Notes under the pieces: generated by a model
Seen by the model: only the letters and a program-made list of their open reading frames with translations
Databases searched by the model: none
Told to the model about the DNA's origin: nothing
NCBI GenBank assembly: GCA_018818885.1
Contig: JAHIRB010000007.1
Coordinates: 18,357-82,356 of the forward strand
Reading direction: 5' to 3'
Source of the DNA: Patescibacteria group bacterium
Lineage (GTDB): Bacteria; Patescibacteriota; Patescibacteriia; Buchananbacterales; SURF-54
DNA: 64,000 bases
In this document: positions 6,754-64,000 of the stretch, one piece after another
How the letters are laid out: each line of letters begins with the position of its first letter
How positions within the stretch are numbered: the stretch's first letter is position 1
Made by a program: the position numbers and the translations under genes

Positions 6754-6841
6754 AATGTATAGTTATGTTAATAAAGTTAATACGGTTGATATGTTAATAT
6801 AGAAATCGTATTAACTATATTAACTGTATCAACTACACTTC

Positions 6842-25602: not shown

Positions 25603-27015
25603 CTAGAAATTAGAAATTATTTTATATACATCACCTGCTCCCATAACTGCGACGACTTCTCCAGCGCAGGCTTCTTTGGTTAAATATTCTGAAATGTTTT
25701 TTAGACTACCCTTATATTTAATGTTTAGATGATGATTAGATGCCAGTTTAGCTATGTCTTTAGAAGTTATACCTTTTGCTTTTTCTCTGGCAGAAGCAAA
25801 AATATCTGCTAAGATAACTTCGTTACAATCTACAAAACAAGTAGCAAATTCTTTTTTAAATGCTTTTGTTCTGCTCACCATGTGCGGTTGGAACACGCAT
25901 CTAACATATTTTTTTGGAAATTTTTGTCTAATTGCCTGTAGTGTTGCCCTAACTTCTGTTGGATGATGAGCATAGTCGTCAATAAACTGTATTCCTTTTT
26001 TATTCGCTATTGTCATTCTGCGTTCTACTCCCTTAAAATCAACCAAGACTTTTGCAATTCTAGCCTTACTTATTTTATTTATGTCACACACAATTATACA
26101 AGCCAAGGCATTCAAAACATTATGATCACCTGCTAGCCTAGTTTTAAATCGACCATAATATTTTTTATTTTTTTTGATTTTAAATTCAGTTAAATTTTTT
26201 ACATATTTGATATCGTATGCTTGCCAATTAGCATTTGAATTTAATCCATAGGTAATAATATTTTTCTTATTTTTGATAATTTTATTTATTGATGGCCAGT
26301 CCGAACAAGCAATTACTTTACCTTTATTTTTGAAAGTTTGATTGATCAGTTTTAAAAAAGTATTTTCGATTGATTTTAAATTCTTATAAACATCTACGTG
26401 TTCCCATTCCAAACTTGTGATGATTGTTAATTTTGATTTAAGATCTAAAAATTTTGCTATGTTTAGTTTTAAACTTTTAACGTATTCATCCCCTTCTACA
26501 ATAAAATGTTTGCCATCTTGCCATTGTCCGTTAGCTGGTAATCCATAGGCTTTCGATGAACCAAATAGATAACTTGGCTTTAACCCTAATGATTTAAACA
26601 TAAATGCGAGACATGACGTAGTGGTGGTTTTTCCGTGAACTCCCGTAATTGCAATTGTATTTTTTAGCTGACTAACGTAACCTCGCAATTCTGATTCTAG
26701 AACAGTTTTAAGCTTCTTTGTCCTGAGTTTATCGAAGGATTGTTTTTCGACAAAATCGTATTCTGGATTATTATTACTAAACGAAGTTCCTACCACAACT
26801 AAATCTGGGTTGAATTCACTGATATTCTTAGCACTAAAATTCTGAAAAATTTTGATTTTATTTTTAATTAACACTGGATCAGTAATAAATTTTTCTGAAA
26901 CATCAGAACCTGCAACATCATATCCCATTTGTTTAAAAATAATAGCTAAGCCTGACATGGCCACGCCCTTAATGCCTAAAAAGTATATTTTTTTTGCACT
27001 TTTACTAAGTTGCAT
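25603..27015 (-). CDS. murC: UDP-N-acetylmuramate--L-alanine ligase
   Basis: GIKGVAMSGLA and GTHGKTTTT motifs. Confidence 0.9.
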   Translation of the reverse strand: MQLSKSAKKIYFLGIKGVAMSGLAIIFKQMGYDVAGSDVSEKFITDPVLIKNKIKIFQNFSAKNISEFNPDLVVVGTSFSNNNPEYDFVEKQSFDKLRTKKLKTVLESELRGYVSQLKNTIAITGVHGKTTTTSCLAFMFKSLGLKPSYLFGSSKAYGLPANGQWQDGKHFIVEGDEYVKSLKLNIAKFLDLKSKLTIITSLEWEHVDVYKNLKSIENTFLKLINQTFKNKGKVIACSDWPSINKIIKNKKNIITYGLNSNANWQAYDIKYVKNLTEFKIKKNKKYYGRFKTRLAGDHNVLNALACIIVCDINKISKARIAKVLVDFKGVERRMTIANKKGIQFIDDYAHHPTEVRATLQAIRQKFPKKYVRCVFQPHMVSRTKAFKKEFATCFVDCNEVILADIFASAREKAKGITSKDIAKLASNHHLNIKYKGSLKNISEYLTKEACAGEVVAVMGAGDVYKIISNF

Positions 27016-28072
27016 CTTTTACTATTTGAATGATTTGATTTGCTAAATTATTTTCTTGATCTACAATGTTTAATTTTTCAATATTTCTAGAAAGATTTTC
27101 TAGTTGTGATTTGTCTACAATAATATTAGAAATGAATTCACTAAAATCTTCTGGGGTTAAATCGTTTTGTTTTAGATATATTGCAGCGTTATTTTTTGAA
27201 AATTCCAAAGCATTATCTTCTTGATGGCTATTAGGAATTGGTATTAAGGCAACCGCTTTTTTTAATGCAGCGCATTCTGTTAAAACTGACATGCTGGCAC
27301 GGCACACCACTAAATCTGCTGCGGCTAAGACATCTTTAAACTCGTCAGTTAAAAATTCCAACTGCAGATAATTATTAAAAAATATCTTTTCGCCTTTTCC
27401 CTTGCCAGTGATGTGTATTACTTGGGCATTTTTTGCAATTTGTTCTACAGATTCAAATACTAGATCGTTAATTGCTTTAGACCCTGTACCTCCACCTAAA
27501 ATTAAAATGATTGCTATATCGCTTTGTAATTTGAATTGTGCTATGGCTTTTTCTTTTGAGCCTTCATAAATTTCACTTCTAGCAGGATTTCCTGTTTGAA
27601 CTACTTTGGATGGGTTAAAATTATTTTTTGAATTTTCAAACGTAACCGTAATTTTTTTAGCAAAAGAAGAAATTATTTTATTTGCCAAACTCGGTCTAAC
27701 ATCTTGTTGATGAATTAGTACTGAAATTTTAAAAAATTTGCCTGCCCAAGAAAGCGGTACTGCTACATACGCAGCAGAAGATACAATTATATCTGGTTTA
27801 AACTTTTTGATAATAATTAAAGATTGGATAAACCCAATCAAAATTCTTGCAGGATCTAAAAAATTTTGCCAAGAAAAATAACGCCGCAGCTTGCCACTTT
27901 GGATTGCTTTAAACTCCAAACCATAACTTTTAATAAATTGTATTTCGGGGCCACTCTTTGTTCCTACCCATAAAAAATCCGCGCTAGGATAATCCCTTTT
28001 TATGGTTTGATAAACTGCAATCAAAGGGCTAACAGAACCAAAAGTTCCACCCCCAGATAATAATATCTTCAT
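27005..28072 (-). CDS. murG: undecaprenyldiphospho-muramoylpentapeptide beta-N-acetylglucosaminyltransferase
   Basis: LSGGGTFGSVSPLIAV N-terminus, GT28 fold. Confidence 0.9.
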   Translation of the reverse strand: MKILLSGGGTFGSVSPLIAVYQTIKRDYPSADFLWVGTKSGPEIQFIKSYGLEFKAIQSGKLRRYFSWQNFLDPARILIGFIQSLIIIKKFKPDIIVSSAAYVAVPLSWAGKFFKISVLIHQQDVRPSLANKIISSFAKKITVTFENSKNNFNPSKVVQTGNPARSEIYEGSKEKAIAQFKLQSDIAIILILGGGTGSKAINDLVFESVEQIAKNAQVIHITGKGKGEKIFFNNYLQLEFLTDEFKDVLAAADLVVCRASMSVLTECAALKKAVALIPIPNSHQEDNALEFSKNNAAIYLKQNDLTPEDFSEFISNIIVDKSQLENLSRNIEKLNIVDQENNLANQIIQIVKDAT

Positions 28073-28222
28073 ACCCGGTAGTAGAATTTCAAACGGTTAT
28101 TTTATTTAAATATATATATTATTGTATTGATTATTAAATAATTGTTAATCTTTTGAACAACTCGACATAAAACGCTCAAAATATTATCAAAATTATTTGA
28201 AATTTCACTACCGGGTCATATC
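28070..28222 (-). mobile_element. MITE-like element copy E1 (short-TIR subtype), ATG-bounded, fills gap between orf132 stop and murG start codon
   Basis: termini catacccggtagtagaatttcaaa / tttgaaatttcactaccgggtcat are inverted repeats; element ends with murG ATG. Confidence 0.55.
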
Positions 28223-28619
28223 AAAATCCAAATTTCATACCATCTTCAATTTGGTGTCCATATTCATCCATTAAAATTATATTTTCCACCCTTCCTTCAA
28301 GATAAGATTGGCACTGATTTTCTGCTTCTGAATCAACATCTTCTAATGGATTGTGCACAATATCAATTGCCCAGTTTGGCACAATTTCTTCTGCTAAACA
28401 TGGTCTTTTTTCTAGATCAAAACCGCTGATTAACTTTTCATCTAACATCTTTCTTCCTTCTCTGATTGCGTTTGCTTTATTACTTTTAAAGTCATCCAAT
28501 TTTTCTTCACTACTTGCTATAATCTTATCCATGCTTTCTCTAACAATTTTGACGTTTTTGTAATACGCCACTCCGATAACAATTGCTATTATGATTGTAA
28601 GAAGCAACAATTTTTTCAT
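28221..28619 (-). CDS. hypothetical membrane-anchored protein within dcw cluster
   Basis: 132 aa, N-terminal TM helix. Confidence 0.45.
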   Translation of the reverse strand: MKKLLLLTIIIAIVIGVAYYKNVKIVRESMDKIIASSEEKLDDFKSNKANAIREGRKMLDEKLISGFDLEKRPCLAEEIVPNWAIDIVHNPLEDVDSEAENQCQSYLEGRVENIILMDEYGHQIEDGMKFGF

Positions 28620-35161: not shown

Positions 35162-36244
35162 ATGCAACCTTTATTTGAAAAAATAAAAAAATTTACAATA
35201 AATCTGCAAAGAGTTCCTGTTTCTCAAAAAATATTTTTTGTTCAACAGTTGGGCATTATGATAAAAACCGGCATTTCGCTTTCTGTAGCTTTAAACACTT
35301 TAAGCCGTCAAGCCTCAAATAAAAAATTTAAAACCATACTTTTATCTTTAAAAAGTGAAGTAGAAAAAGGAAATTTACTTTCTAAAGGTTTAGAAAAATA
35401 CTCCCAGGATTTCGGTGAGCTTTTTATTAATATGATAAAAACTGGAGAAACTTCTGGTAAGTTAGAGGACGTCTTAAAACAATTATATATTCAGATGAAA
35501 AAAGATCACGAGATTGTGGGTAAGGTAAAGGGTGCCTTAATCTATCCAGCGATTGTTATTACCATGATGATAGTAATAGGAATTTTAATGATGGTTTACG
35601 TTATCCCAAATATCACATCAATTTTTGAAGAAGTAAACGCTCAAATCCCACTTTTTACTAGAATATTAATATGGTTAAGTAAATTTATTACAGCCAATGG
35701 AATTTTAGTAGCTGCTGTTTCATTAATATCGATAACAATTTTTGTTCGCCTAATAACTTGGGAAAAAGGTAAATTTCAATTTCATAGAATTTTATTAAGG
35801 ACACCGGTTGTTGGAAAAATAATAGTAAAAATAAATTTAGCAAGATTCTGCAGAACACTTAGCTCTTTATTAAAAACAGATATACCTATTGTAAAAACTT
35901 TTGGCATAACTGCAGATGTATTAAGCAATCGCTTATACCGAAAAGCGTTAAATGAGGCTAAGGAACAAATACAAAAAGGGGTTAGTATAGAAAAATCTTT
36001 AAATGTTTACCCTAAACTTTTTCCACCAGTAATTTTGCAAATGATTGCAGTGGGCGAAGACACAGGTTCTTTAGACGACGTATTACAAGAATCAGCAATT
36101 TTTTACGAAGACGAAGTATCCCAAACCATGGATAATTTACCATCTATAATGGAACCAGTTTTAATGGTTATTTTAGGTCTTGGAGTTGCTGCCATGGCAG
36201 TTGCTGTTATTATGCCAATGTACAGCTTAAGCCAAGCAATTTAA
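35162..36244 (+). CDS. pilC: type IV pilus inner-membrane platform protein PilC (GspF family)
   Basis: two T2SSF repeats, 3 TM. Confidence 0.85.
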   Translation: MQPLFEKIKKFTINLQRVPVSQKIFFVQQLGIMIKTGISLSVALNTLSRQASNKKFKTILLSLKSEVEKGNLLSKGLEKYSQDFGELFINMIKTGETSGKLEDVLKQLYIQMKKDHEIVGKVKGALIYPAIVITMMIVIGILMMVYVIPNITSIFEEVNAQIPLFTRILIWLSKFITANGILVAAVSLISITIFVRLITWEKGKFQFHRILLRTPVVGKIIVKINLARFCRTLSSLLKTDIPIVKTFGITADVLSNRLYRKALNEAKEQIQKGVSIEKSLNVYPKLFPPVILQMIAVGEDTGSLDDVLQESAIFYEDEVSQTMDNLPSIMEPVLMVILGLGVAAMAVAVIMPMYSLSQAI

Positions 36245-36245
36245 T

Positions 36246-36362
36246 ATGACCCAGTAGTGATCCCGTAAAATTTAAATTACTATTGGATTATAAAAACATA
36301 AAAAAATTTGGAATAATTAATAAATATAATAAATGCCATTTACGGGACTACTACCGGGTATG
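36246..36362 (+). mobile_element. MITE-like element copy E2 (long-TIR subtype, 118 bp), ATG-bounded, between pilC stop and pilin-like gene start
   Basis: TIRs atgacccagtagtgatcccgtaaaa / tttacgggactactaccgggtatg; AT-rich core; terminal ATG is start codon of downstream gene. Confidence 0.6.
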
Positions 36363-38633
36363 AAAACCAAAAATCAAAAAGGACTATCTTTAATCGAAGT
36401 ATTATTTTCGGTTTTTATTTTGGCTATTTTGAGTATAGGAATTTTTTCTCTGTTCCAAATTGCTTTGAATGTTTTAGCAGAAAATAAAGCCAGAGTTGGT
36501 GCAGTTTCGTTAGCCAACGAAAAAATGGAAATTATCAGAAACTTATCATACGAAAATGTTGGTACAGATGGCGGATGGCCATCAGGAGATCTTGAACAAA
36601 CAGAACTTATTACTAAAAACAATATTGAATATACTGTTAATATAGCTATTAATTACGTTGATGATCTTTTTGATGGTGATTGTGACACTGACTTAGATTG
36701 CAATGATTATAAAGACGTTGAAATCGAAGTGCTGTGGACTGGGCATTTGGGTGTGCGTAACGTGATTATGAGAACAGCAGTTGCGCCACGAGGTTTAGAA
36801 ACGATGACTGGCGGAGTTTTAAGAGTGAGTGTATTTGATGCTAATGGTGATCCTGTGGATAACGCACAAGTCCACTTAGTTAATAATATTATTTCTCCAA
36901 CAATTAATACAAATTTTTATACTAATGATAGTGGTCAGGTAATTATTCCTGATCTTGAAGAATCATTAAACACATACCAACTAGATGTAACAAAGATAGT
37001 AGTCCCAGGGGAGACAGAATACAGTATTGATAGGACTTGTGCTATTGATTCTAATTTTGCAGATTGCACAAACGGTAATGCAGACCCAACCAAACCACAC
37101 GCCTCAGTAATCGAAAGTGAAATTACAGAAATTAGTTTTGCCATTGACCTTGTCTCGACTTTAACCATAAGAACAGTTAATCAAACTACGCCTTTGGCAT
37201 GGATAGTTAATACCGGCGACCTTTCAGAAGATCAAGACAACCCAGCCATTACGGTGTGTGATAGTGGCGAATATATTTTTGGTTGGCGAGATGATGATTA
37301 TGGTATAGATAAAATATATAGCCAAAGATACGACGAATATGGTGAAGTGATTTGGGTAGAAGATAAAGCGATTTCAACGGCTTCGAAACAAAACAATATA
37401 GACTTAGCCGTAGATAATGATTGTAATATTTATGCTACTTGGCAAGATGATAGAGACGATAAAGGTAATGAAGATGTGTATTTTGTTAGTTACGATGACA
37501 ACGGAGATGATCGTTGGGACGGCGAAAAAAAGATAGTCACAGAAGCTGAAAGTTCAGATCAAAGCTGGCCAAAAATCACTCTAAACACTGCTAAAGATAG
37601 AGCTTATATTGCATGGGAAGATGAAAGAAATGATAATGGCGATATCTACATTATAAAATATGATATTTCATCAGAAGAAACTCCACTATCAGTAGTAGCA
37701 GAATTCGATCCAGCAATAAAGGTAAATTCTGATTCAATTGGTTCAGCGCAGGAAAAACCAGTGGTAGCTAACGATACAGATGATAATATTTACGTTGTTT
37801 GGGAAGATGATAGAAATTTTAATTATGATATTTATGCTCAAAAATTAAATAGTGATGGAACCAAGTTGTGGTCTGACACAAAAATAAATTCTGATTCTGG
37901 CGCATCTCAAGAAAATCCAGATATCGCACTTGATTCTTCAGACAATTTGTATGTTGTCTGGCAGGATTTTAGAAGTGATAATGATTATGACATTTATATT
38001 CAAAAATACGATAGCTCTGGCAATAGATTGTGGGCATTAGAAGATATTAAAGTAAATTCTGATTCTTCTGACGCATCTCAAGAAAATCCTGTAATAGCAG
38101 TATATGACCCCGGAACACCAGCTGATATTAGAATTTATGTCGTCTGGCAAGATTACAGAAACAGTAACTCTGATATATACATGCAAATTTTTGATTACAA
38201 TGGTAATAAACAATTAGATTATGATCTCAATATTGGAAATGGTAGTGCAGACCAAGAAAATCCAGATATAATAATTTCTCCGATCACTGGGTTTCCAACA
38301 ATAACCTGGCAAGACAACACCAACGGCGATTGGGATATAATAGCAGCGCAATACGGAGACACAATAGAAAACGGTGGTAACGTTGCAAATGTGGCTTTTG
38401 ACATGTCTGGCTCAAAAACTATTGGTGAAGATATAAACGAAGATCCTATCTATAAATATAACAATATTACCCTACAAACTGACGGTACTGGGACTCTAAT
38501 ACTTACAAATATGGAATGGGATACATACACAATTAATCTTGATCCTGACCGCACACTTCTAATGTCAGAACCCCCTATCCCCTTCTTATTAAATCCCAAT
38601 ACTTCGTTAACCGTATTTCTAAATGTTGAATAG
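36360..38633 (+). CDS. giant type IV pilin-like protein: prepilin N-terminus + seven ~45-aa YVVWxDxR...DIYxQK repeats (predicted beta-propeller)
   Basis: leader MKTKNQKG then LSLIEVLFSVFILAIL (class III signal); tandem sequence repeats visible in translation. Confidence 0.7.
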   Translation: MKTKNQKGLSLIEVLFSVFILAILSIGIFSLFQIALNVLAENKARVGAVSLANEKMEIIRNLSYENVGTDGGWPSGDLEQTELITKNNIEYTVNIAINYVDDLFDGDCDTDLDCNDYKDVEIEVLWTGHLGVRNVIMRTAVAPRGLETMTGGVLRVSVFDANGDPVDNAQVHLVNNIISPTINTNFYTNDSGQVIIPDLEESLNTYQLDVTKIVVPGETEYSIDRTCAIDSNFADCTNGNADPTKPHASVIESEITEISFAIDLVSTLTIRTVNQTTPLAWIVNTGDLSEDQDNPAITVCDSGEYIFGWRDDDYGIDKIYSQRYDEYGEVIWVEDKAISTASKQNNIDLAVDNDCNIYATWQDDRDDKGNEDVYFVSYDDNGDDRWDGEKKIVTEAESSDQSWPKITLNTAKDRAYIAWEDERNDNGDIYIIKYDISSEETPLSVVAEFDPAIKVNSDSIGSAQEKPVVANDTDDNIYVVWEDDRNFNYDIYAQKLNSDGTKLWSDTKINSDSGASQENPDIALDSSDNLYVVWQDFRSDNDYDIYIQKYDSSGNRLWALEDIKVNSDSSDASQENPVIAVYDPGTPADIRIYVVWQDYRNSNSDIYMQIFDYNGNKQLDYDLNIGNGSADQENPDIIISPITGFPTITWQDNTNGDWDIIAAQYGDTIENGGNVANVAFDMSGSKTIGEDINEDPIYKYNNITLQTDGTGTLILTNMEWDTYTINLDPDRTLLMSEPPIPFLLNPNTSLTVFLNVE

Positions 38634-58304: not shown

Positions 58305-58385
58305 GCATGGTTATGAGTAGTAAGTAGTAAGCTGTAAGATATAAATTACTTTTGCATACTTACTGCTTAAGACTTACAACTTACT
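58305..58385. repeat. inverted repeat of agtaagtagtaag units flanking 40-nt spacer
   Basis: direct inspection. Confidence 0.45.
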
Positions 58386-58587
58386 ACTTTTTTGGTGTTA
58401 AAATATTTTGCACTCTACCTACTAACCCAGACTTCAAACGCACTTTAATGCCACGGTGATGTTGTGCAGAACTAGTTAAAAGATCCTTAACAATACCTTG
58501 GGATAGTTCTCCAGTACCTTGATGGTGTTTTTGGACAATTTCAACGTGTTGACCAGGATATATGTTTTTTCTAATAGTTGGATCCAT
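58384..58587 (-). CDS. YwbE-family small protein (DUF2196)
   Basis: GIVKDLLTSSAQHHRGIKVRLKSGLVGRV. Confidence 0.6.
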   Translation of the reverse strand: MDPTIRKNIYPGQHVEIVQKHHQGTGELSQGIVKDLLTSSAQHHRGIKVRLKSGLVGRVQNILTPKK

Positions 58588-62516: not shown

Positions 62517-62993
62517 TTAGCCTCCGTCTTTTACTTCATCTGGCCATTTGTAATTGACTTCTTCACTATTCCAAGGGTATCTCAACTCGTCAGGTTCTTC
62601 ATAGTCGTATTTTTGATTAGGCACATTGACAATTCGCGCCTCATCACAATTATGAGCAGTGAAACCATGCAACACACCAATTGGCACTTTGACAATAACT
62701 TGTTCTCCGCTTGTTGTTGGGTCTGTCATAATCACTTCTTGGACTTCTTTGTAAGTTGGTGAATTCTTTCGTGCATCATACATGACCCACAATGCTTGTC
62801 CTAAAACACATGTAACTCGGTCAATCTGTCCTTTGTGATAATGCCAAGCCTTAGCATAACCTTTTTTTACTCCAGTCATATAGACTTGGCCAAAGGTATC
62901 AAACATCTCGTCGTCGTTTCTTAACATCTCCATTAAAAAACCACGTTTATCTTTCATTACTTTTAACTTTTTTATCTCAACTCCGTCAATCAT
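62517..62993 (-). CDS. rfbC: dTDP-4-dehydrorhamnose 3,5-epimerase
   Basis: cupin fold, KRGFLMEM...WHYH motif. Confidence 0.85.
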   Translation of the reverse strand: MIDGVEIKKLKVMKDKRGFLMEMLRNDDEMFDTFGQVYMTGVKKGYAKAWHYHKGQIDRVTCVLGQALWVMYDARKNSPTYKEVQEVIMTDPTTSGEQVIVKVPIGVLHGFTAHNCDEARIVNVPNQKYDYEEPDELRYPWNSEEVNYKWPDEVKDGG

Positions 62994-63351
62994 TTTTATA
63001 AATTAATACTAAGCTAATTGACATTACGATAACTGCAACCATGGAAATAATAATTTCTTTTCTGCCTCTGCTAGCAAAACTATTGAATATAATAATTCCA
63101 AAGGTTATCGACAAAACTGCAATTAATAAATAGTAAAATATTTTTTTTACTATATTTAGTCTATCAATTTTTTGAAAACACAGCGCAGTTATGATACCAC
63201 TTAATATGCAAATTAGCAAGGCTATGTTTATATTGAAATAATTAGTTACCAAACCAGTTTTATACCATTCCATAATAAATAAAACTAGGTATGTGACAAA
63301 TGACACAAAAAATAAATCCTTAAAAATATGCGTAATTATTTCTTTTTTCAT
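62986..63351 (-). CDS. hypothetical polytopic membrane protein
   Basis: 121 aa, 3-4 TM; start codon supplied by MITE-like element E3. Confidence 0.4.
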   Translation of the reverse strand: MKKEIITHIFKDLFFVSFVTYLVLFIMEWYKTGLVTNYFNINIALLICILSGIITALCFQKIDRLNIVKKIFYYLLIAVLSITFGIIIFNSFASRGRKEIIISMVAVIVMSISLVLIYKND

Positions 63352-63488
63352 ACCGGGCAGTAGAAATTCAAATTGTAAGTATAATTTAAAATCATAATAT
63401 TTTTTGTGAATAATTTTTTAAATGTTTACGACTCATAATATGAACGAAATATGAACAAATATTTTTTGAATTTTCACTGCCCGGTCAT
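63349..63488 (-). mobile_element. MITE-like element copy E3 (short-TIR subtype)
   Basis: termini cataccgggcagtagaaattcaaa / ttttgaattttcactgcccggtcat; very similar to E1 termini. Confidence 0.5.
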
Positions 63489-63603
63489 ACCCGGTAGTGA
63501 TCCCGTAAATGGAATTTAATTTTTATTAATAATATTGAGTAGATTAAATAAATTTATTGCTAGATAGTAATTTTAAATTTTACGGGACTACTAGTGGGTC
63601 ATA
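63486..63603 (-). mobile_element. MITE-like element copy E4 (long-TIR subtype, 118 bp, inverted relative to E2)
   Basis: TIRs match E2 with few mismatches; shares cat junction with E3; terminal atga provides stop of upstream ORF. Confidence 0.6.
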
Positions 63604-64000
63604 ATGCTAGAATTTGTTGTTTAATTTTAGAAGCAATATCTTGCCATGTTTTAGGAATTCTTTTTAGCACAATATTAATTTCTTTAATCATCAAACCATC
63701 ATCCCCTGCCTTGATTTGTGGAAGAGATATTACAAAATGCAATTGATTGTCTTGTGTATCATATTTATCTAAATCGTTAAAGCGAATCAATTTTTGCTGA
63801 ACTTTCCCGTTATCACTTGGCGCGTCGTAGCGTGCGATCACATACTCAATTTTTTCTTCATCAAAACCCAAACCATTCTTTAAACTAGTAGGTGCTGGAT
63901 CGAAAAACATGTCTTTACTAAAACCAAACAATCCACGAGTGGTTATTTTTATATCATTTTTTGGCATGGTAATTTCTTTTATACCAAAATCTGTTTGCAC
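63599..64000 (-). CDS. hypothetical protein (runs off window end)
   Basis: 133-aa ORF, partial. Confidence 0.4.
   Translation of the reverse strand: MQTDFGIKEITMPKNDIKITTRGLFGFSKDMFFDPAPTSLKNGLGFDEEKIEYVIARYDAPSDNGKVQQKLIRFNDLDKYDTQDNQLHFVISLPQIKAGDDGLMIKEINIVLKRIPKTWQDIASKIKQQILAL

Follow-up and report, generated by a model that had tools for sequence, protein, structure and literature searches.

Four short inverted-repeat elements in a 64,000-nucleotide stretch of DNA from a Patescibacteria group bacterium (GenBank assembly GCA_018818885.1, 200-kb metagenome contig JAHIRB010000007.1, positions 18,357 to 82,356; hereafter the window) are each bounded by ATG trinucleotides, and in three of them the distal ATG is the start codon of the next gene, namely murG, a pilin-like gene, and a gene for a 121-aa protein. 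What are these elements, denoted E1-E4, and why do they end on start codons? A preliminary description, made from the sequence of the window, had likened them to miniature inverted-repeat transposable elements (MITEs), and had not noticed that full-length partners encoding a GIY-YIG nuclease exist. We now consider it probable that E1-E4 are non-coding miniature copies of tiny Patescibacteria cassettes mobilised by a GIY-YIG nuclease of their own. We hold the descriptive part of this reading with high confidence, that is, that they are miniature copies of a nuclease cassette, with a real duplication and a start-codon position. Movement of the elements by the nuclease itself, with an intrinsic preference for ATG, is drawn from the architecture and from analogies with Ssn nucleases and IS200/IS605 elements, and we give it an even chance. 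The most specific form, in which a nuclease of ~88 aa mobilises an autonomous element of ~305-320 bp that integrates specifically at start codons, with the window hairpins as its non-autonomous offspring, is put forward tentatively, at somewhat less than even chance.

Four hairpin elements in the window

Measured from outer ATG to outer ATG, both included, the elements are 117-150 bp in size. E1 (28070..28219, minus strand) is of a short-arm type and lies between a 132-aa gene and murG; in gene orientation its 5' arm occupies 28196-28216 and the other arm 28073-28093, and its ATG copies are at 28217-28219 upstream and at 28070-28072, the latter being the murG start. E2 (36246..36362, plus strand), of a long-arm type and placed between pilC and the pilin-like gene, has its arms at 36249-36269 and 36339-36359 and its ATG copies at 36246-36248 and 36360-36362. 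E3 (63349..63488, minus strand, short-arm type) stands in tandem with E4 (63486..63602, minus strand, long-arm type), and the ATG at 63486-63488 is common to both. The distal ATG of E3 (63349-63351) is the start of the 121-aa gene, and E4 has its arms at 63489-63509 and 63579-63599 and its upstream ATG at 63600-63602. All four elements with inverted ends and ATG on both flanks are thus present as first described, with the extents of E2 and E3 unchanged; E1 ends at 28219 rather than 28222, and E4 at 63602 rather than 63603.

The division into two subtypes holds, with 70% identity between E1 and E3 and 73% between E2 and E4. The 21-nt terminal inverted arms are 81-90% complementary, and in E3 two identical substitutions are present in each arm (CCGGGCAGT / ACTGCCCGG). 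When folded, each element forms a single long hairpin, with z values of -3.6 to -5.7 against dinucleotide shuffles (E1: -39.1 kcal/mol, z -5.7). The elements are non-coding, the sole reading frame off the flanking ATG having 3 codons, and none of them was matched by Rfam 15 at the gathering threshold, the only match in the window being an L10 leader. Their orientation relative to the flanking genes is identical, and all junctions read T-ATG-A|CCCGG...CCGGG|T-ATG-A in gene orientation. Since T-ATG-A stands on both sides at every junction, the window alone permits a duplication of 3, 4, or 5 bp. Two elements begin 1 nt past the upstream stop codon, as had been observed (E1, TGA-T-ATG; E2, TAA-T-ATG), and at E4 the stop overlaps the flanking ATG (TTATGA). 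Small size, lack of coding capacity, inverted ends, and a target duplication judged against empty sites (see below) support the assignment of E1-E4 as MITE-like, non-coding relics of mobile elements.

Full-length cassettes with a GIY-YIG nuclease gene

One genome per species was scanned with a single-arm pattern in which the flank was unconstrained and which was extended by N{0,30}TTT, a condition met by the AT-rich core. Among the 21 loci found, nine belonged to this repeat family: eight on contigs of metagenome-assembled genomes (MAGs) annotated as Patescibacteria (seven MAGs, from Parcubacteria, Buchananbacteria, Moranbacteria, and unclassified Patescibacteria), and one on a contig labelled Bdellovibrionales. 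All of the family loci had (T)ATG(A) flanks. A small open reading frame (ORF) lies between the arms in loci L004, L007, L008, L009, L011, and L016, and only ~80-90 bp of non-coding DNA, as in the window copies, in L012, L013, L021, and a second L009 site. Viral contigs scanned with both arm types gave no match, nor did plasmids searched by tblastn with one family member.

The full-length cassette is ~305-320 bp long and consists of ~20-nt inverted ends, CCNNGTAGTGAAA... and ...TTCTACTACNNGG, around one gene. Its product of 85-95 aa is a single GIY-YIG domain spanning the whole protein (Pfam PF01541, E = 2e-16), and 30 members of the family share the catalytic residues Y, Y-x-G, R, H, N, and E. 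Among solved structures, the UPF0213 proteins 1zg2 (E = 6e-10) and 1ywl (2e-8) come closest, followed by SLX1. No NCBIfam model matched the nuclease above its cut-off, the group I intron endonuclease model reaching 18 bits against a cut-off of 56. With a profile of the family, 5,367 clusters (50% identity) were found at E <= 1e-10 among 1.8 billion representatives.

The ends tie the window copies to these cassettes. All 20 nt of the E1 end CCCGGTAGTGAAATTTCAAA are identical in the full-length elements L008, L016, and L090, each with a GIY-YIG gene, and the end of a further full-length element with this gene (L078) differs from E1 only at the last position (CCCGGTAGTGAAATTTCAAT). For the inner-arm type of E2 and E4, no full-length partner was seen. 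An intact cassette (L106 6015-6322) with a 94-aa GIY-YIG gene (L106 6048-6332) stands on the same contig ~4 kb beyond the right end of the window. Its neighbours are dapB and a PMT_2 gene whose start codon is the right ATG of the cassette; its ends are CCCCGTTAGAAATTTTTA and its flanks ATGA|...|ATGA. The left ATG of this cassette is preceded, at a distance of 7 nt, by a TATAAT box. In the window, a tblastn search with the nuclease gave no copy. The single weak match (58450-58548, E = 0.9) was rejected, as it is a DUF2196 gene.

The elements could instead be ordinary MITEs of a DDE transposase (IS630/Tc1 or IS5/PIF), with the GIY-YIG gene as a mere passenger between CCNNGTAGTG ends. Inverted ends with a short duplication are generally taken as a DDE hallmark, and the window holds no nuclease gene. 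Against this, the GIY-YIG gene is the sole ORF in about 60 full-length elements and fills them; no transposase gene was seen between the ends of these elements or next to any of the copies inspected; and the duplication, TATG or ATGA, is neither TA nor TNA. We therefore regard a DDE origin as very improbable.

Several indirect signs in the sequences suggest that the elements have moved. Relatives differ in the presence or absence of an element, there are several copies per genome, and in one MAG two copies at different loci are 91% identical. Tandem arrays sharing a single ATG occur in the window (E4-E3, 63349-63602) and at L036, L067, and L073/L095, and they combine a miniature copy with a full-length or a second miniature copy; the E3/E4 tandem pair was also found in other samples (L106, L108). 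Contigs of another sample break inside or beside elements (L107, 1-127, and L002), a hint that short-read assembly of these genomes is interrupted at the repeats.

The duplicated target and its preference for ATG

To know whether the flanking ATG is duplicated, orthologous junctions in relatives are informative. At the pilC-pilin junction, the closest relative (78% PilC identity) has ATTTAATATGTAC and the next relative TAAAAATATGAAC, both with a single ATG and without the element; the empty sites read TAA-T-ATG (L112) and TAA-AAAT-ATG (L111). The murG junction is likewise empty in L105 (55% MurG identity), where it reads TAA-ATT-ATG. Considering that the empty orthologous sites have a single ATG, the ATG in the window is a target duplication. 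In the closest relative at murG (L104, 62% MurG identity), the junction carries a full-length, frameshifted family member with different ends (CCCCGTTAGAAATTA) and flanks TATAA|...|TATGA, which we read as a second, independent hit on the murG start codon.

For the family at large, metagenomes were scanned with the nuclease protein as seed, so that ends and flanks played no part in the selection. It gave 80 loci, 72 of them with inverted ends by the gene, and merging of similar flanks left 54 independent sites. ATG stood on both sides in 36 of these, on one side in five (apparently mutated or tandem cases), and on neither side in 13; each ATG flank lies on the strand of the nuclease gene. At most of the sites with ATG on both sides, a gene begins at the right ATG, and the ORF there is long. 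Nine such ORFs were assigned by Pfam, namely SecA, PheRS alpha, a class I tRNA synthetase, a class A penicillin-binding protein (PBP1), PilB, an M29 peptidase, a family 2 glycosyltransferase, a cytidylyltransferase, and a radical SAM enzyme, and in most of the nine the Pfam domains start within the first few residues (2-9). The start-codon position noticed in the window thus extends far beyond it.

The 13 sites lacking ATG are flanked by direct repeats of arbitrary 3-4-mers (TGAA, TACG, TGGA, TTCA, CAAG, AGGA, TTGA, TGG, GGA), which means that the flank is a genuine target duplication, usually of 4 bp. Over the family, the duplication ranges from 3 to 5 bp and is most often TATG or ATGA, and the ATG occurs in two registers, TATG (the commonest) and ATGN (ATGA, ATGC, or ATGG). 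The earlier proposal of a 3-bp ATG duplication was accordingly right as to a true duplication and wrong as to its usual length. That the flank is always ATG is correct for the window, but about a quarter of the independent family sites duplicate other sequences. Most of these also lie near a gene start. One AGGA duplication, itself the Shine-Dalgarno sequence, precedes an ATG by 13 nt; a TGAA duplication falls on a TTG start, which the final G of the element rebuilds as GTG; and the remaining near-start cases are 8-62 nt upstream of the start. One full-length cassette (L077, ~2479-2792) lies within a pilin gene at the prepilin cleavage motif (G|FTLIE), with TTCA duplicated. ATG is strongly preferred as the duplicated target, and it is not obligatory.

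Would retention explain this preference by itself? In this main rival explanation, insertion has little or no sequence preference, only sense-orientation copies that rebuild a start codon survive, and ATG is the filter of a compact genome. The two ATG registers and the variable length of the duplication speak for it, as do the sites with other sequences, mostly 8-62 nt upstream of a gene, and the copy inside the pilin gene. However, a random 3-mer is ATG about once in 64, and yet ATG stands on both sides at two thirds of the sites, an excess of ~40-fold. Equally harmless positions between stop and start codons, available at E1 (TGA-T-ATG) and E2 (TAA-T-ATG), were not used. Tandem arrays re-use the ATG made by an earlier insertion, and the murG start was struck by two different family members in two genera. 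Retention as the sole cause thus appears unlikely to us.

A subgroup of end variants flanked by TGGA (L063, L075, L088, L092 at ~2390-2470, L100, and L102) immediately follows, in all cases, the Trp codon in a conserved dockerin-like motif (...DFSIMAYYW), and its arrangement is often miniature copy, TGGA, and nuclease gene. It could be one old, vertically inherited insertion or a subgroup with its own target. This repeated placement after one conserved codon is among the observations that would fit free-standing homing endonuclease cassettes, spreading through repair of double-strand breaks ("intronless homing"). GIY-YIG enzymes are classic homing endonucleases, and the faint NCBIfam match noted above is to group I intron endonucleases. 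Homing, however, leaves no target duplication and requires a long conserved target, whereas the host genes here are unrelated and have only the ATG in common. In addition, the protein has no DNA-binding domain beyond its nuclease core of 85-95 aa, and gene-less miniature copies with the same ends exist. We consider homing, too, to have a very slight chance of being correct.

Covariation of the two ends

The two ends vary together. In 43 distinct end pairs, 13 of 20 positions were changed on both arms with complementarity kept, and 94% of the cells were paired. Compensated end variants with matching partners are CCCGG, CCAGG, CCCCG, CCCAG, CCTAG, and CCGGG. Arm positions 10-11 show a GA/AG swap in all end variants, in either order, which places a G.U pair beside an A.C mismatch (in E1, 28205-28206 and 28083-28084). 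This swap was considered as a marker of element orientation and rejected, since copies with either arrangement have their nuclease gene on the same strand. The count of covarying positions is inflated, because complementary arms were a condition for choosing elements and because co-evolution of both ends is to be expected in any transposon. Despite these caveats, the breadth of the compensated variants is consistent with recognition of a folded hairpin.

Strong covariation would also be expected if the hairpins had been domesticated, that is, kept for a role of the host in mRNA processing, translation, or recombination control, and were no longer mobile. The old window copies, with a core identity of 70%, retain near-perfect stems, the arms of E3 carry matching changes, and the copies are co-oriented with operons of essential genes; domestication has been proposed by the authors of the Ssn work (PMC11893778). 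On the other hand, close relatives differ in the presence of an element at the same junction, nuclease pseudogenes occur (L009, L104), the end variants are many and the host genes differ, and no Rfam family was matched. Moreover, no common function is apparent among the window genes, whether they have an element or lack one. We therefore judge domestication to be improbable.

A possible route of insertion and what weighs against it

Our observations comprise the build of the cassette, the duplicated flank and its empty counterparts in relatives, the placement and orientation at start codons, and the joint variation of both ends; they could be connected as follows. As in Ssn and IS200/IS605-RAYT systems, by analogy, pairing of the two ends within single-stranded DNA would form a hairpin. 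The nuclease would recognise this end hairpin and cut beside it at (T)ATG, thereby moving its own cassette as well as the gene-less miniature copies. Insertion duplicates 3-5 bp, overwhelmingly on the start codon of a host gene and in the orientation of that gene. In this scheme, the bias to ATG would mainly be an intrinsic target preference, sharpened by selection, and the element would borrow the transcription and the start codon of the host and return a rebuilt start codon.

Several points weigh against mobilisation by the nuclease. First, we infer both cutting and movement of elements by this protein from architecture and analogy. GIY-YIG enzymes hydrolyse DNA and join no strands, so integration would require host functions. 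Second, the variable duplication (3-5 bp) and the two ATG registers suit selection for rebuilt start codons at least as well as a fixed recognition sequence. Third, the window copies are old, as their identity of 70-73% within a subtype indicates, and they may no longer move. Finally, the ends of the intact cassette beyond the window (CCCCGTTAGAAATT) differ from those of the four miniature copies, and the 83 kb of this genome that were examined showed no autonomous partner to match them.

The cassette within the operon of its host

How would a gene tolerate such an insertion at its start? The nuclease ORF begins 19-28 nt inside the left end and usually terminates 15-20 nt short of the right end; that of some copies runs on through the right arm and overlaps the host ATG. 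At a TATG junction, the host ATG is followed by CCC GGT AGT GAA... through the left arm, and in ~20 of 32 NATG-class copies, which are not phylogenetically independent, the flanking ATG is in frame with the nuclease (MPGSEN..IMFYYVYV). At an ATGA junction, as in the window, it opens a frame of three codons and a stop (ATG ACC CGG TAG). The right ATG copy would thus preserve the start codon of the host gene, and the left copy its initiation context, either as a 3-codon mini-ORF or as an N-terminally extended nuclease (MPGSEN...). The cassette would then be an extra, translationally coupled cistron that uses the transcription and start site of the host and passes ribosomes on to the host gene, and it would be tolerated before essential genes because it acts in this way.

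A Shine-Dalgarno-like motif was found within 25 nt upstream of seven of 51 window genes, and TATAAT lies 6-10 nt before the ATG in many of them, which suggests widespread leaderless or Shine-Dalgarno-independent initiation in this genome. For the gene-less copies, translation past the element could proceed by selection of the start through local structure or by mRNA processing at the foot of the hairpin, leaving a leaderless AUG. The preliminary description had ventured that the elements supply promoter or ribosome-binding context. Neither role is borne out: in a scan of the window elements, matches to a promoter consensus were not above those in shuffles and E2 had none, and the right arm has no Shine-Dalgarno sequence in a genome that scarcely uses one.

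Relation to known systems

The closest described system is the Ssn family, to which the cassettes are likened by size, domain, and architecture. SsnA is a 94-aa single-domain GIY-YIG protein that requires single-stranded DNA to bind its hairpin repeat, next to which it cuts (PMC11893778). The ssn genes are commonly flanked by hairpin repeats (NTS/SRM), and the authors remark on their insertion-sequence look (Chenal et al., Nat Commun 2025, PMC11893778); the repeats occur also as many gene-less copies outside genes, and recombination control has been proposed for NTS/Ssn in Neisseria (PMC11893778). The family described here similarly has a single-domain GIY-YIG protein of ~90 aa, a gene flanked by inverted repeats, and gene-less repeat copies. 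It differs in that both ends pair across the gene, whereas each Ssn repeat forms its own hairpin, and in the target duplication, the start-codon position, and the fixed orientation. The published SRM motif (HGTCWY...RNCYNB) had no match on either strand of the window and none within 150 nt of 68 elements; the inverted repeats around the nuclease gene have another sequence. With regard to the Ssn clade (cd10448), the likeness is by description, the nearest solved structures to the cassette protein being those of UPF0213. Start codons, duplications, MITEs, and Patescibacteria are not mentioned in PMC11893778, which was the sole relevant paper in a literature search on GIY-YIG nucleases and mobile repeats; start-codon duplication and miniature copies were found neither there nor elsewhere in the literature searched, and we met no description of a mobile element of this kind.

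RAYT/REP-REPIN and IS200/IS605 systems, cited in the same paper (PMC11893778), also combine a small nuclease gene with hairpin repeats and many gene-less copies in a genome, and they share with our elements a probable recognition of a folded single strand and an oriented insertion by a short specific sequence. The cassette ORF, in contrast, encodes a GIY-YIG hydrolase and not an HUH (Y1) enzyme, and the elements make a 3-5 bp duplication, which includes non-ATG sequences. IS200/IS605 and RAYT enzymes are HUH tyrosine transposases that act through covalent intermediates and leave no target duplication. Correia/NEMIS (in Neisseria), RUP, ERIC, and Nezha elements resemble E1-E4 as MITEs 100-160 bp long that have inverted ends, make a short duplication, and are co-transcribed with adjacent genes as long hairpins. 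They insert at TA or other sites irrespective of start codons, and to our knowledge their presumed mobilisers are classical transposases and a GIY-YIG partner is absent from all of them.

Free-standing GIY-YIG homing genes of phages, such as the T4 seg genes, are likewise wedged between conserved genes and expressed from the operon of the host. They carry an extra DNA-binding domain, have a long specific target, and lack inverted ends, a duplication, and miniature derivatives; the cassette protein, in contrast to homing endonucleases, has no extra domain, and its host genes are unrelated. Rickettsia palindromic elements are also small palindromic repeats whose insertion is tolerated by the product of the host gene. 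These lie in frame inside coding sequences and are translated, whereas the present family sits at the start codon, outside the host protein.

We accordingly file the start-codon duplication, the fixed orientation, and the size of ~310 bp as new, and the small GIY-YIG nuclease with hairpin repeats and the MITE-like derivatives as known. As far as we know, even the smallest insertion sequences are about twice as long as the ~305-320 bp of the cassette, and the enzyme classes known for bacterial DNA transposition are DDE, DEDD, HUH, serine, tyrosine, and Cas1. Were the cassettes indeed moved by the nuclease, GIY-YIG would join this short list with an element of ~310 bp. The start-codon position would be a way for a parasite to inhabit the most compact genomes, before genes such as those of SecA, MurG, and a tRNA synthetase, and to survive there without killing the host by acting as an extra coupled cistron. 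The link to Ssn points to a pool of small nucleases whose partner hairpins vary in sequence, and it offers a concrete hypothesis for the origin of the unexplained IS-like architecture of Ssn genes. In practical terms, the elements mislead gene callers, as in the pilin-like gene described below, and break metagenome assemblies at the repeats.

Genes at the window copies and other features

The murG gene (27005..28072, minus strand) encodes 355 aa from the distal ATG of E1; this start agrees with the Pfam Glyco_transf_28 match from residue 3 and with homologues of 348-355 aa. Upstream of E1 lies the 132-aa gene (28221..28619, minus strand), to which no function is assigned; its TGA stop ends 1 nt before the flanking ATG, and the gene is conserved upstream of murG in L104 and L105. 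On the plus strand, pilC (T2SSF, 35162..36244) ends with a TAA stop 1 nt before E2, and the pilin-like gene (36360..38633, 757 aa, with an N-terminal methylation motif) starts at the distal ATG of E2. The start at 36360 was set by relatives, in which MYKNNQKG... and MNKKG... directly follow pilC. Public gene calls begin this gene 9 codons early, at an in-frame ATG in the right arm of E2 (36333-36362), giving 766 aa; judged by these relatives, the extension is spurious and added by E2. The 121-aa gene (62986..63351, minus strand) starts at the distal ATG of E3. The gene upstream of E4 is cut by the end of the window, which holds its 3' end (63599..64000, minus strand), and has 499 aa on the full contig (L106 gene 8254-9753); its TGA stop at 63599-63601 is overlapped by the ATG at 63600-63602.

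Three further structured features of the window were recorded. The leader of ribosomal protein L10 (5557-5677, minus strand; Rfam RF00557, 64.9 bits) stands upstream of rplJ/rplL. An intergenic palindrome at 6767-6824, with a perfect centre, 29-nt arms that are 83% complementary, and no spacer, is unrelated to the element family. Just after the DUF2196 gene, an inverted repeat of AGTAGTAAG-type units (58316-58389) is probably a terminator-like hairpin.

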